64,000 nt of DNA from a virus: the UHGV virus genome UHGV-0375936. One strand, given 5' to 3'. Below, piece by piece: positions 24,983 through 30,355 of this stretch. Both the position numbers and the translations under genes were made by a program. The notes beneath the pieces are model-generated. The model was not told where the DNA came from, ran no database searches, and saw nothing but the letters and a program-made list of their open reading frames with translations. Within the stretch, counting starts at the first letter, position 1. Every line of letters begins with the position of its first letter.

Positions 24983-25651
24983 CTATCTAAGAATATTTTT
25001 AGCGAAAAAAGGATCGACTATAAACTCCTTCACCTGTGAGTCATAACCCGAATGTATTTGATCGCTACTGAGCAAATACCCGTCTAAATCGTGTGGAAGA
25101 ATCCAAGAATCCCCCTGTTTAAAAATACCATAATCTGTTGTTCCAGAGGAAAAAACGATTTCCTCTGGAGAGGGATAGATGTGGCGTAAGGCAAGATCAG
25201 ACGGCTTTAGCACGATTAATCGAACGGGATGTTGACTGACTGCCTCTTTAATAAACTGTTCACGATTAAACCAAATTATTTTTTCGGGGTAAGTTTCGAA
25301 TTCAGCCCATGTCCGCGTGATAACTAATTTGGAAATCTTTCTCAATTCTTCAGAATGCTCTGCGTAGCCGATACACTCCTTGCGTACTTCATGATTTTCT
25401 ACCGATGCTGTGAATTTTTGGAATAGGTGTTGTTGGAAAAAGCCGTTCTCCGGGATATCACAACCCGCGTTGTATAGTGCAACGATCTCCCACAACAACG
25501 AAAGAGAAAACACAAATGCTAACTTTTCCACAACTTCCCAATCTTCGGAGTAAGGGGCTTTAAAGCCCCAATACTGCCGTGCGTTATACATAAAGTGAGT
25601 TTGTAAAAACCGAGGGGCTTTTGACAAGACCTCACTATAAACGATCAGCAT
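24983..25651 (-). CDS. Hypothetical protein (222 aa)
   Basis: ORF, minus strand. Confidence 0.55.
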   Translation of the reverse strand: MLIVYSEVLSKAPRFLQTHFMYNARQYWGFKAPYSEDWEVVEKLAFVFSLSLLWEIVALYNAGCDIPENGFFQQHLFQKFTASVENHEVRKECIGYAEHSEELRKISKLVITRTWAEFETYPEKIIWFNREQFIKEAVSQHPVRLIVLKPSDLALRHIYPSPEEIVFSSGTTDYGIFKQGDSWILPHDLDGYLLSSDQIHSGYDSQVKEFIVDPFFAKNILR

Positions 25652-27165
25652 TCAAGCTCCTTATCCGTCAATATTCGTTTGTTTGAATAATAGCCGCACC
25701 ACAACCCATGATATTTTTCCCCGATATAAACCAACGCGTACTCGATATACTGCCGTTCTGGACGCCGTACCGCCACGTAGAATCGTCCTTCTGGTTCTTT
25801 CATACGGTTGATTTCCGTACGCGTCGGTATGTCGATACCTCGAGTAAGGATGGTTTTAACCTTGTTTTTGCTACCTGGGATATGGATGGTTACGTCAAAA
25901 CCTTTATCTACGTTACGATAAAAGTCTTTCTTCGGCTTACCTTTCTCATCGTAAAGCAGGTCAGTAATGTCGTTCATTACGACTGAGTTTTTCCCCTCCA
26001 TGGCATCGCGTAACCAACCTGCAAGCTCATCACGAATCGTAATGCAGCGATAAGACAATAACGCGGGACGAAGAATTCGTGTAATCGAAAGATCTTCAAA
26101 CATCCACAGGTTTTTGTCTTCGCTAAAATGCATCCGTTCGATAGGAATACCGTTAGCTGCGGCTTCTGCGAACTTCTTACGTTTTACGAATAAGTTAAAT
26201 ACAACGGCGATGGGATCAAATTGACGTAAACGGGGCACCCCTTCCCACGCTTTCGCAGAGTGGGTATTTACCAACTCGTATACGTTATCCCACGGTTCTT
26301 TGGTAAACATTACGCAGAATTGTGCGTCTGGAATGTACTTACCAACGAAGACGATATCGTCCTTCTGTTTTGCATGGTTCCCACCGAACATGTAATAAAG
26401 TTTATTACCGTTAACCGTAACCGTGGGATGCGGTTCGTTCACCATCGGGTAACAGAACTTCGTAACACAGATATCAGGAAAGGCAGACAAATTGACACCC
26501 TCGCCAACAACTTCTGGTTGCTGTTCTTCCTCAGGCATCTCGTCTTTTGACCAATACGGTGTATAGTCTAACCCATCACCTCGAGCCGAAATACTTGAAC
26601 CTTTCCGTGCTAACTCGTCGGCACGTTCGTTTCCATAACGTCCTGAATGCCCTTTAATTTTAAGGACACGAACACCTTTCCCTTCTTTCTTTAACCGCTG
26701 TTTAACCTCCCACATCCGTTGGATTAATTCCAAGTTCGCAATAGGTGTACCGTCTGCACGACGCCAACCGCGTGCAGCCCAACCATCAATCCAATCGTTA
26801 TACGTGTTGACAACGTAAGAGGCATCGATATAGATAACATAGTTTTTGGCAACGAAAGGTGCGTGTTCGAAGACGGTCAGGAAAGCCACGAGTTCTGCAA
26901 CGTCAGAGTGTGACATTTTTGGTACAGGCACAACGCCGTCAATAAACTCCACAGTTTCTGGTAAAGGTGGAAGTTTTTCATCCTTGTTTATCTGGCGGTA
27001 TCCTGACGACGTAATCCCCTCTGGAATAGAGGGATGGCGGTAAACCCGACCATCCTCAATCGCTTCACGATTAAATAAGTATCCATGAATCCCCGCTCCT
27101 GTACCGAGCGGGGAGGTCAAATGGCTACCATCCGTGTAAATTACTGCAACATCAACGTTCTTCAT
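25645..27165 (-). CDS. RNase HI domain protein fused to ~300-aa uncharacterized C-terminal region (506 aa)
   Basis: N-terminal VAVIYTDGSHL...GTGAGIHGY and later IKGHSGRYGNERADELARKG match RNase H type 1 signature; C-terminal half unassigned. Confidence 0.65.
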   Translation of the reverse strand: MKNVDVAVIYTDGSHLTSPLGTGAGIHGYLFNREAIEDGRVYRHPSIPEGITSSGYRQINKDEKLPPLPETVEFIDGVVPVPKMSHSDVAELVAFLTVFEHAPFVAKNYVIYIDASYVVNTYNDWIDGWAARGWRRADGTPIANLELIQRMWEVKQRLKKEGKGVRVLKIKGHSGRYGNERADELARKGSSISARGDGLDYTPYWSKDEMPEEEQQPEVVGEGVNLSAFPDICVTKFCYPMVNEPHPTVTVNGNKLYYMFGGNHAKQKDDIVFVGKYIPDAQFCVMFTKEPWDNVYELVNTHSAKAWEGVPRLRQFDPIAVVFNLFVKRKKFAEAAANGIPIERMHFSEDKNLWMFEDLSITRILRPALLSYRCITIRDELAGWLRDAMEGKNSVVMNDITDLLYDEKGKPKKDFYRNVDKGFDVTIHIPGSKNKVKTILTRGIDIPTRTEINRMKEPEGRFYVAVRRPERQYIEYALVYIGEKYHGLWCGYYSNKRILTDKELEC

Positions 27166-27167
27166 TC

Positions 27168-27902
27168 TTAATCCCTGGTTAATTGATCACGAATCTGTGG
27201 CGCAACATACTCGCCTGTTTTCAGTTCTTCGTGACAGGCTTTGGCGCGTTCAAACCCGTATTGGCGTGTGACCAAAGCGAGGTGGTAAATACGTGCCGTG
27301 GTGTAGGCTTCTTTTGCTGCATCCCACATTGCGTGGTGCTCAAAAGCGGGCTTACCGCGTGTCCAGTAAATTTGCTCTACGGTTAAGTCAGGCTCGAAAC
27401 CAAATGCAAAGGCTAAACGTTCTGCAGTACGATCGCTATCCAGTGCACTAAATTTACGGAACTTCCCTGGCGGAATATCACATTGTGCGAACGCGTTCAT
27501 GAAAATCGGTGCATCAAAGTCAGGACCACGCATGGTAATAACAAATTCATGTTTTGCGGTAATCTCCCCGAGCCATTTTTGCATCGCCCACAGTGCGTCC
27601 GGCAATGCTGTCGTCCCACCCCATGCTTCCGCATAGGCTTCACGAGACGGTGCGTATTCGGGTTCGCCTTTACCTTCCCACCAACCAACAGTTTGTGGGT
27701 CTTCGTGGAAAATGGCTTTTGCTTTAGGATCGTTAGGATCAATACGGATGTATGAGGAACCGACCATTTTCAATGTAGGGACGTCAAAGGCCACTAAACC
27801 TGCACTTAACAGATAAGCATCGGGACGTAATGATTTGGTTTCAGCATCAGCGCCAATAACCAGCGTCGGTGTGTACGGGGTGACAATTTTTGGGTAGGTC
27901 AT
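27168..27902 (-). CDS. DEDDh-type 3'-5' exonuclease (DnaQ/RNase T-like)
   Basis: Exo motifs: VIGADAET (DxE), GPDFDAPIF, HHAMWDA (H-x4-D). Confidence 0.65.
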   Translation of the reverse strand: MTYPKIVTPYTPTLVIGADAETKSLRPDAYLLSAGLVAFDVPTLKMVGSSYIRIDPNDPKAKAIFHEDPQTVGWWEGKGEPEYAPSREAYAEAWGGTTALPDALWAMQKWLGEITAKHEFVITMRGPDFDAPIFMNAFAQCDIPPGKFRKFSALDSDRTAERLAFAFGFEPDLTVEQIYWTRGKPAFEHHAMWDAAKEAYTTARIYHLALVTRQYGFERAKACHEELKTGEYVAPQIRDQLTRD

Positions 27903-27944: not shown

Positions 27945-27988
27945 TTAAAAAGAAAGACCCTCCTGTACCACGAAAGGGTACAGGAGGG
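27945..27988 (-). terminator. Rho-independent terminator (minus strand)
   Basis: CCCTCCTGTACC-acgaaa-GGGTACAGGAGGG hairpin then T-run on minus strand. Confidence 0.6.
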
Positions 27989-28981: not shown

Positions 28982-30355
28982 ATGTTAGACTTACAAGGTT
29001 TTATTCAGATACCGGCACTGTTTGACAATCAGGACGGCGTCACCGCTCCGGTGGGCGAGCTGTCGGATTTGACACTCTCGTACGCGAAGAGTAAACAGAC
29101 GTTTACTAAAACCAATTTGCAAGTTCAATTGGTGACTTTTACGTCTAAACGAGAAAAACAGACGGTTGTTGTACCAGCCGAATTTTCTGATCATATTCTA
29201 ACCGTTTCTCAATGGATTTACCAGCAAGCCATCTTGGGGAATCTGAGAAATGACGAACTTGAATTCCAGCGCCTGTTACTAGGACAATTCCAATCAACCA
29301 TTTCTGGCGTTCAGTCCGGTGCGATGATCCAGACGAACAGTAACTGGTTCCCACGCTGGGTGAGCTGGAAATATGAAGCAACAGCAGATCAAGTACAAGA
29401 TGACACCGATGTAGATAATCAGATCATTGTTTGGTTCTCGGATGAAGACTTCGATCAAGATTACACAGGGTTCGAAATCGAAGTGCAGATGCCGATTTCA
29501 CCAATCGACACATTTTTGTCGACCAAGTCAGTCGTTGAAAAGGCGATGGAAGGGTTTAACCTTACCGAACACCATAAGAAAATCAATGAGTTAATGGCAG
29601 GGTTTCCTTACACCGCTATCCAAACCAACTACTATACTTGGCACGATAAAGAAAACTACGAGTCCACCCTAGTTGTCCCAATGTCGGTTATTATTTACGG
29701 CCGCGCGGGAAAAAACCCAACGAAAATAAAGCAAGCGTTGCGAGAACATATTCTCGCCAATTCTAGCTTTACTGTCCCCGTCGGGGTAAAGGTATTTCCT
29801 GAAATTTTCACTACCACGAAATTTACAATTGTTCCTGGATGGAAAATTCGTGGAATACCTAATGAGGAAGACGTAGCGGCGCTTTATTCCCCTATCCTTC
29901 CATATGATTTCTGGGTCAAAGCTATCAGTCGGTTTGGAGAATGGGCAGACCTGACGGTAGCAGAAAGAAATACTAAAACGATCAGTAAGCCTACGACAGA
30001 TGTAACTGACTTACCAACCGTTTATAAATCATTAAACTGTGTTGTAATCAGTGGGCCAGAAAATGATACGCGGAAAGCGACCTTACACGAAACTATCCCG
30101 GATTATGCGTTAATTGCGACGACTAACCCTGATATTGCGCGTATGTCGAAAACAACGACCGAATGGTTGGCGTTATTTTTCCAGGCACTTATTGCTGCGG
30201 AAGAATACCACCCGTATCAAACCAGCTTGGATATTGTAAAACTGGTCGATGAGGCTGACCCTGATAACTACTTCTGGGTGTTTGAATACGACAACGTAGA
30301 ATATCGTATCCTGTCTCGGAAAGCGAAATGGTACACCGAGTTAGACAAGGAGTAA
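28982..30355 (+). CDS. Hypothetical protein (457 aa), plus-strand island
   Basis: Long plus-strand ORF inside minus-strand block. Confidence 0.6.
   Translation: MLDLQGFIQIPALFDNQDGVTAPVGELSDLTLSYAKSKQTFTKTNLQVQLVTFTSKREKQTVVVPAEFSDHILTVSQWIYQQAILGNLRNDELEFQRLLLGQFQSTISGVQSGAMIQTNSNWFPRWVSWKYEATADQVQDDTDVDNQIIVWFSDEDFDQDYTGFEIEVQMPISPIDTFLSTKSVVEKAMEGFNLTEHHKKINELMAGFPYTAIQTNYYTWHDKENYESTLVVPMSVIIYGRAGKNPTKIKQALREHILANSSFTVPVGVKVFPEIFTTTKFTIVPGWKIRGIPNEEDVAALYSPILPYDFWVKAISRFGEWADLTVAERNTKTISKPTTDVTDLPTVYKSLNCVVISGPENDTRKATLHETIPDYALIATTNPDIARMSKTTTEWLALFFQALIAAEEYHPYQTSLDIVKLVDEADPDNYFWVFEYDNVEYRILSRKAKWYTELDKE

Follow-up and report, generated by a model that had tools for sequence, protein, structure and literature searches.

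Gene arrangement at the locus

The window analysed here is the whole stretch of 64,000 nucleotides of the UHGV virus genome UHGV-0375936, and the features of the locus under study are listed in Table 1. The core of the locus consists of two genes, one coding for a predicted exonuclease and the other for a protein of 506 residues, in which an N-terminal RNase HI domain is joined by a linker to a large C-terminal domain (CTD). Both open reading frames (ORFs) have the positions and lengths given in the initial annotation, which had described the exonuclease as following the RNase H. The exonuclease gene is in fact the upstream one, since both are encoded by the minus strand.

Table 1. Positions of genes, protein domains and other elements at the RNase H locus
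Feature	Coordinates	Strand	Evidence
Predicted DEDDh exonuclease gene, 244 aa	27168..27902	-	ORF list, Pfam and PHROG matches
RNase H gene, complete, 506 aa (RNase HI, linker and CTD)	25645..27165	-	
Predicted RNase HI domain, residues 1-200	26566..27165	-	Pfam/profile, model, catalytic residues
RNase H insertion, residues 32-72, family-specific	26950..27072	-	Model, alignment
Acidic interdomain linker, residues 201-222	26500..26565	-	Structure model
CTD, residues 223-506	25648..26499	-	Alpha/beta in the model
ORF of 222 aa, phrog_9472, downstream of the RNase H gene	24983..25651	-	PHROG match
Virion structural protein, PHIKZ157 homolog	28982..30355	+	27% identity, E 9e-49
Terminator-like hairpin: 12-bp stem with 8 G-C pairs, then TCTTTCTTTT	27958..27988	-	Consensus scan only

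Two nucleotides separate the stop codon of the exonuclease gene from the ATG of the RNase H gene, and an AGGAG ribosome-binding site precedes the exonuclease ATG. The two genes are probably co-transcribed and translationally coupled. The start of the 222-aa ORF overlaps the stop of the RNase H gene by 7 nucleotides, and because of this overlap we place it in the same transcription and translation unit. The predicted hairpin lies just upstream of the exonuclease gene, with two small ORFs beyond it, and, being terminator-like, would separate the exonuclease/RNase H unit from them. Matches to sigma-70-type promoters showed no excess over shuffled sequence.

The PHIKZ157 homolog is transcribed divergently from this unit and anchors the synteny with the PhiKZ 154-157 block. 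Genes for a UvsX/Nlp1-like protein, an SbcC-like protein and a baseplate protein are found in the same block (compare PhiKZ 152-165), and the gene order at the locus agrees with that of Asesino and SPN3US. The small neighbouring ORFs were also compared with PHIKZ154, 156 and 156.1; the only match was a weak one between a 152-aa ORF and PHIKZ156 (E 0.002), and their assignment as orthologs of these three genes was dropped.

When the 2.3-kb region was compared by megablast with 50,697 phage records, no match was obtained. The phage is therefore not close to any deposited genome, and searches at the protein level were needed. Its source is an uncultured SPN3US/Erskinevirus-like jumbo phage, and the closest cultured relative is the Erwinia phage Asesino, a nucleus-forming chimallivirus (PMC11724907).

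The RNase HI domain, its protein family and the upstream exonuclease

The RNase HI signatures recognised in the initial annotation are real. The Pfam family RNase_H (PF00075) matched residues 81-190 (75.5 bits, E 6e-21; cutoff 25.8 bits), and the family profile matched the human and Escherichia coli RNase H1 structures with an E value of ~4e-27. NCBIfam yielded RNase H matches below threshold only (65 bits, against an equivalog cutoff of 160). The five catalytic residues D12, E91, D114, H173 and D183 align with D10, E48, D70, H124 and D134 of E. coli RNase HI, and they are 96-97% conserved among 129 diverse representatives of the family. In RNA-DNA hybrids, RNases HI cut the RNA strand; the N-terminal 200 residues appear to form a catalytically complete enzyme of this type, the activity of which we infer here from the conserved residues. 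The active-site DEDD and His residues and the basic protrusion (WIDGWAARGWRRADGTPIAN) are common to the phage protein and to E. coli RnhA and human RNASEH1 (PF00075). The phage protein differs from the cellular enzymes by an insertion of approximately 40 residues (32-72) that separates strands beta2 and beta3, has high model confidence (block pLDDT 92-96) and is shared with PhiKZ155, and by the CTD of 285 residues. The cellular enzymes are not known to carry such a C-terminal domain.

Although the initial annotation was right that the C-terminal part carries no recognisable motif, as residues 223-506 matched neither Pfam nor the sequences of the PDB, the protein is not an uncharacterised oddity. 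The PHROG family phrog_3265 spans its residues 1-504 (E 6e-170), and 114 phage records align over at least 80% of its length, every one among the matches listed being a jumbo phage. Identity amounts to 66% with the Asesino protein, 63% with the SPN3US group and 24.6% with phiKZ-like phages. By BLASTP, residues 5-494 align with residues 3-476 of PHIKZ155 (E 9e-31), and hhalign aligned the two proteins over 453 columns with a probability of 100% (E 2e-47). Judged by these alignments and the conserved synteny, the 506-residue protein is an ortholog of PhiKZ gp155/Nlp2, a core protein of the Chimalliviridae, and the gene is thus already known in kind, as a fairly divergent new ortholog of a protein that was named and tested in PhiKZ. 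Other orthologs in the Nlp2 family are PhiPA3 gp176, SPN3US gp207 and Asesino gp226. In the Asesino genome, ChmA (gp039) is encoded far from gp226.

The two proteins, of 506 and 482 residues, share a two-domain architecture, can be aligned from end to end, and have the catalytic residues and the RNase H insertion in common. The position within the Chimalliviridae core gene block is also kept, with a PHIKZ157 homolog adjacent in both and the UvsX-like, SbcC-like and baseplate genes nearby. They differ in sequence, with only about 24% identity, as compared with 66% to the protein of the nearest cultured phage, and in the presence of an upstream DEDDh exonuclease gene, found here and throughout the SPN3US/Erwinia clade and absent beside PHIKZ155.

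The exonuclease assignment of the initial annotation also held. The 244-aa protein matched the Pfam family Rv2179c-like (PF16473) over residues 19-203 with 44 bits, above the gathering cutoff of 27, and phrog_255, annotated as 'exonuclease', with an E value of 4e-44. Among 17 homologs, D19, E21 and D130 are at least 90% conserved and H189 and D194 are invariant, so that the motifs ExoI (D-x-E), ExoII (D) and ExoIII (H-x4-D) are complete. No relative was found among PDB sequences and no match in NCBIfam. From its motifs, the protein is predicted to be a stand-alone DEDDh 3'-5' exonuclease. It keeps the DEDDh residues of the Rv2179c-like exoribonucleases and DnaQ-like enzymes, and differs from them as a form specific to one phage clade, with further conserved motifs, among them DSDRT (residues 155-159). 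SPN3US gp206 and Asesino gp225 are orthologous to it.

In 19 of 41 IMG/VR loci, all belonging to the SPN3US/Erwinia clade, the gene immediately upstream of the RNase H gene codes, on the same strand, for the exonuclease; the same holds for SPN3US, Asesino, Kwan and SPFM19. The exonuclease gene is absent from beside the RNase H gene in the 22 other family loci and in PhiKZ. The 66 phage records with a member of the exonuclease family all come from the SPN3US/Erwinia/Vibrio pVa-21 clade, and none from Pseudomonas phiKZ-like phages. Since it is limited to one clade, the exonuclease is not obligatory for the function of the RNase H family.

The C-terminal domain and its possible likeness to DNA clamps

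The fusion of the RNase H to the CTD is genuine and conserved. A single ORF encodes both domains in each of the 41 IMG/VR loci with a CTD, and the identical 506-aa product, with the same gene calls, was found in independent metagenome assemblies. The same layout, with a length of 480-550 residues, recurs in cultured jumbo phages, with which the protein was compared. An artificial fusion through a frameshift or an assembly error, which the initial annotation had named as something that would refute its reading, is refuted by these three lines of evidence and can be dismissed with near certainty. A CTD profile matched 1047 cluster representatives, and the best 150 of these were CTDs behind an RNase H or fragments. 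Several of the short matches begin with a partial RNase H match; two that were looked up are both situated at contig ends, and we regard them as fragments for that reason. One short match, the BFVD entry I1VX43 (233 aa), is a candidate stand-alone CTD. Broken versions of the gene occur in some deposited SPFM phage genomes.

Structure modelling of the full-length protein gave a pLDDT of 90.1 with a disordered linker, of which residues 211-222 had a pLDDT below 50; linker length varies across the Nlp2 family. The CTD modelled alone reached a pLDDT of 91.2 and a pTM of 0.90, and BFVD models of family members, produced by independent makers, matched it with TM scores of 0.67-0.94 normalised to the query. 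In three structure searches, the CTD model matched DNA sliding clamps best. PCNA ranked first in Foldseek against the PDB, with E values of 4e-3 or worse and TM scores of at most 0.32, and the first named match outside the family in BFVD was a 'Beta clamp protein' (E 6.6e-3). As we read it, the DSSP string of the model contains three clear beta-alpha-beta-beta-beta units.

At the sequence level, Pfam searches with 25 CTD sequences, with E values allowed up to 1, returned only noise (E at least 0.035) and no clamp family, and a search of all PDB sequences with the CTD profile, with E values up to 10, likewise returned only noise (E at least 0.3) and no clamp. Comparison of the N-terminal with the C-terminal half of the CTD by hhalign, which concerns sequence only, revealed no internal repeat (probability 0.2%); clamp subdomains are assumed not to have detectable mutual sequence similarity either, so that this negative result may carry little information.

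Modelling thus presents the CTD as a separate, well-folded, family-specific domain whose predicted fold is closest to that of DNA sliding clamps, which we treat as a lead. The clamps and processivity factors matched comprise the 9-1-1 subunits Hus1/Rad9/Rad1, PCNA, T4/RB69 gp45, bacterial beta and herpesvirus UL44/PF-8, and the CTD has a size near that of a two-domain clamp protomer. It differs from them by the lack of sequence or profile similarity and by Foldseek TM scores of 0.2-0.3 with a large rmsd, so that its lobes are probably packed differently from those of clamps. It is, moreover, covalently joined to a nuclease and carries a conserved polar patch that would not be expected in a clamp (D399, T401, D445 and R449). 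This set is atypical of a generic clamp and may reflect a different activity or an interface for a specific partner.

Two of the Foldseek matches were archaeal/eukaryotic complexes of PCNA with RNase HII or FEN1 (PDB 3p83 and 1rxm), and the logic of a nuclease for primers or hybrids held at the replication fork by a clamp is possibly shared. There, the nuclease is a partner that docks on a separate ring through a PIP-box peptide, whereas here the clamp-like module and the nuclease form one polypeptide, with an RNase of type HI instead of HII. The suggestion of the initial annotation that the C-terminal extension targets the RNase H to a particular substrate is compatible with a clamp-like fold, if the model is correct. 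In the literature searched on sliding clamps and phiKZ, the fold of the gp155 CTD was unassigned, and no link between PCNA and the Chimalliviridae was found.

Possible roles in phage genome replication

PhiKZ155 is a core gene of the Chimalliviridae and encodes a bona fide RNase H that cuts RNA-DNA hybrids in vitro (PMC12571901). When it is knocked down, the genome is not amplified and the nucleus does not mature, and a D102N variant that had lost RNase H activity in vitro still fully complemented the knockdown (PMC12571901); D102 corresponds to D114 of the 506-residue protein. As this variant still rescues the phage, the essential role of PhiKZ155 is not its nuclease activity. The two-domain layout of PhiKZ155 had already been noted, and a GFP fusion formed a punctum at the nuclear periphery resembling those of PicA and Imp1, from which a stable interaction was proposed (PMC12571901). 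Nuclear import of Nlp2 depends on Imp1 and needs a specific Imp1 interface (bioRxiv 10.1101/2024.03.27.586873). These import and genome-amplification data concern PhiKZ155 and PhiPA3 gp176 only. Chimalliviridae are reported to have neither a classical sliding clamp nor a primase, and the family-B polymerases of group-1 jumbo phages have no fused 3'-5' exonuclease; a stand-alone exonuclease encoded elsewhere may join the replication complex (Iyer et al. 2021).

In our opinion, the best explanation, and a very probable one, is that the locus encodes an Nlp2 ortholog, made of an RNase HI and an inseparable CTD, with a role in nuclear replication and an exonuclease as a clade-specific partner. By orthology, the protein would enter the phage nucleus by import, and the phage genome would not be amplified without it; because identity is only 24%, function is carried over from PhiKZ155 to this SPN3US-clade protein by inference. 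An essential role without RNA cleavage would probably reside in the CTD, in the scaffold, or in both. With a clamp-like fold, the CTD may tether the protein to DNA or to the replisome and so bring its RNase H to replication intermediates. A peripheral punctum like that of GFP-PhiKZ155 is not, however, what would be expected if the protein were distributed over replicating DNA. The exonuclease would be an accessory partner of the RNase H, restricted to the clade and most likely trimming, at the sites of RNase H action, nascent strands or RNA fragments from their 3' ends.

More tentatively, the model suggests that the gp155/Nlp2 CTD might be a very divergent module of the DNA-clamp fold that serves Chimalliviridae replication as a factor for processivity or tethering, which we consider possible at well under an even chance. 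If so, gp155 would be a clamp that carries its own RNase H, and would for that reason be essential for genome amplification even when nuclease-dead, and in the SPN3US clade the operon would have gained the exonuclease as a third activity associated with the replisome.

A reading close to that of the initial annotation makes nuclease chemistry the main purpose of the pair: the RNase H would cut primers or R-loops, the exonuclease would degrade oligoribonucleotides or trim the junction, and the CTD would only direct the nuclease. The strong conservation of both sets of catalytic residues, the adjacency and probable translational coupling of the genes, the naming of the exonuclease Pfam family after an exoribonuclease and the cleavage of hybrids by PhiKZ155 in vitro (PMC12571901) all agree with primer removal. 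However, full complementation by the inactive D102N protein (PMC12571901) indicates that nuclease activity is dispensable under laboratory conditions, entry of host RNase H or Pol I into the nucleus cannot simply be assumed, and an exonuclease that is missing from more than half of the family loci and from PhiKZ fits poorly with such a module. We therefore keep processing of this kind as a tentative alternative. The exonuclease alone might instead be the missing proofreading subunit, acting in trans, of the exonuclease-less family-B polymerase, and adjoin the RNase H as a fellow replication gene. The polymerases of group-1 jumbo phages would leave room for such a subunit (Iyer et al. 2021), and DEDDh chemistry is that of the DnaQ/epsilon proofreaders. 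This is unlikely, as the 66 records of the family include no phiKZ-like phage, the Pfam family is one of exoribonucleases, and the exonuclease meant by Iyer et al. (2021) may be another one.

We judge it equally improbable that the CTD does not bind DNA and is a docking or licensing domain for Imp1/PicA or the nuclear shell, the protein being a replication checkpoint at the shell. The specific Imp1 interface required for import of Nlp2 (bioRxiv 10.1101/2024.03.27.586873) and the peripheral PicA/Imp1-like punctum of GFP-PhiKZ155 with its proposed stable interaction (PMC12571901) speak for docking, and a few highly conserved polar residues would suit a specific protein interface. The other cargo proteins Nlp1, Nlp3 and Nlp4 are, on the other hand, described as unrelated (bioRxiv 10.1101/2024.03.27.586873), 285 residues conserved over more than 1000 clusters are large for an import tag, and the best structural matches of the modelled CTD are proteins that encircle DNA.

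The model-based clamp-fold lead for the CTD was not found in the literature searched. A domain inseparable from RNase H, with sliding clamps as its nearest predicted folds, in phages reported to be without a classical clamp, provides a concrete and inexpensive hypothesis. It bears on how PhiKZ155 'licenses' genome amplification without needing its nuclease, a question left for future study by the 2025 Nature paper (PMC12571901). The strictly syntenic, clade-limited exonuclease offers in addition a natural comparison between phages with and without this partner.

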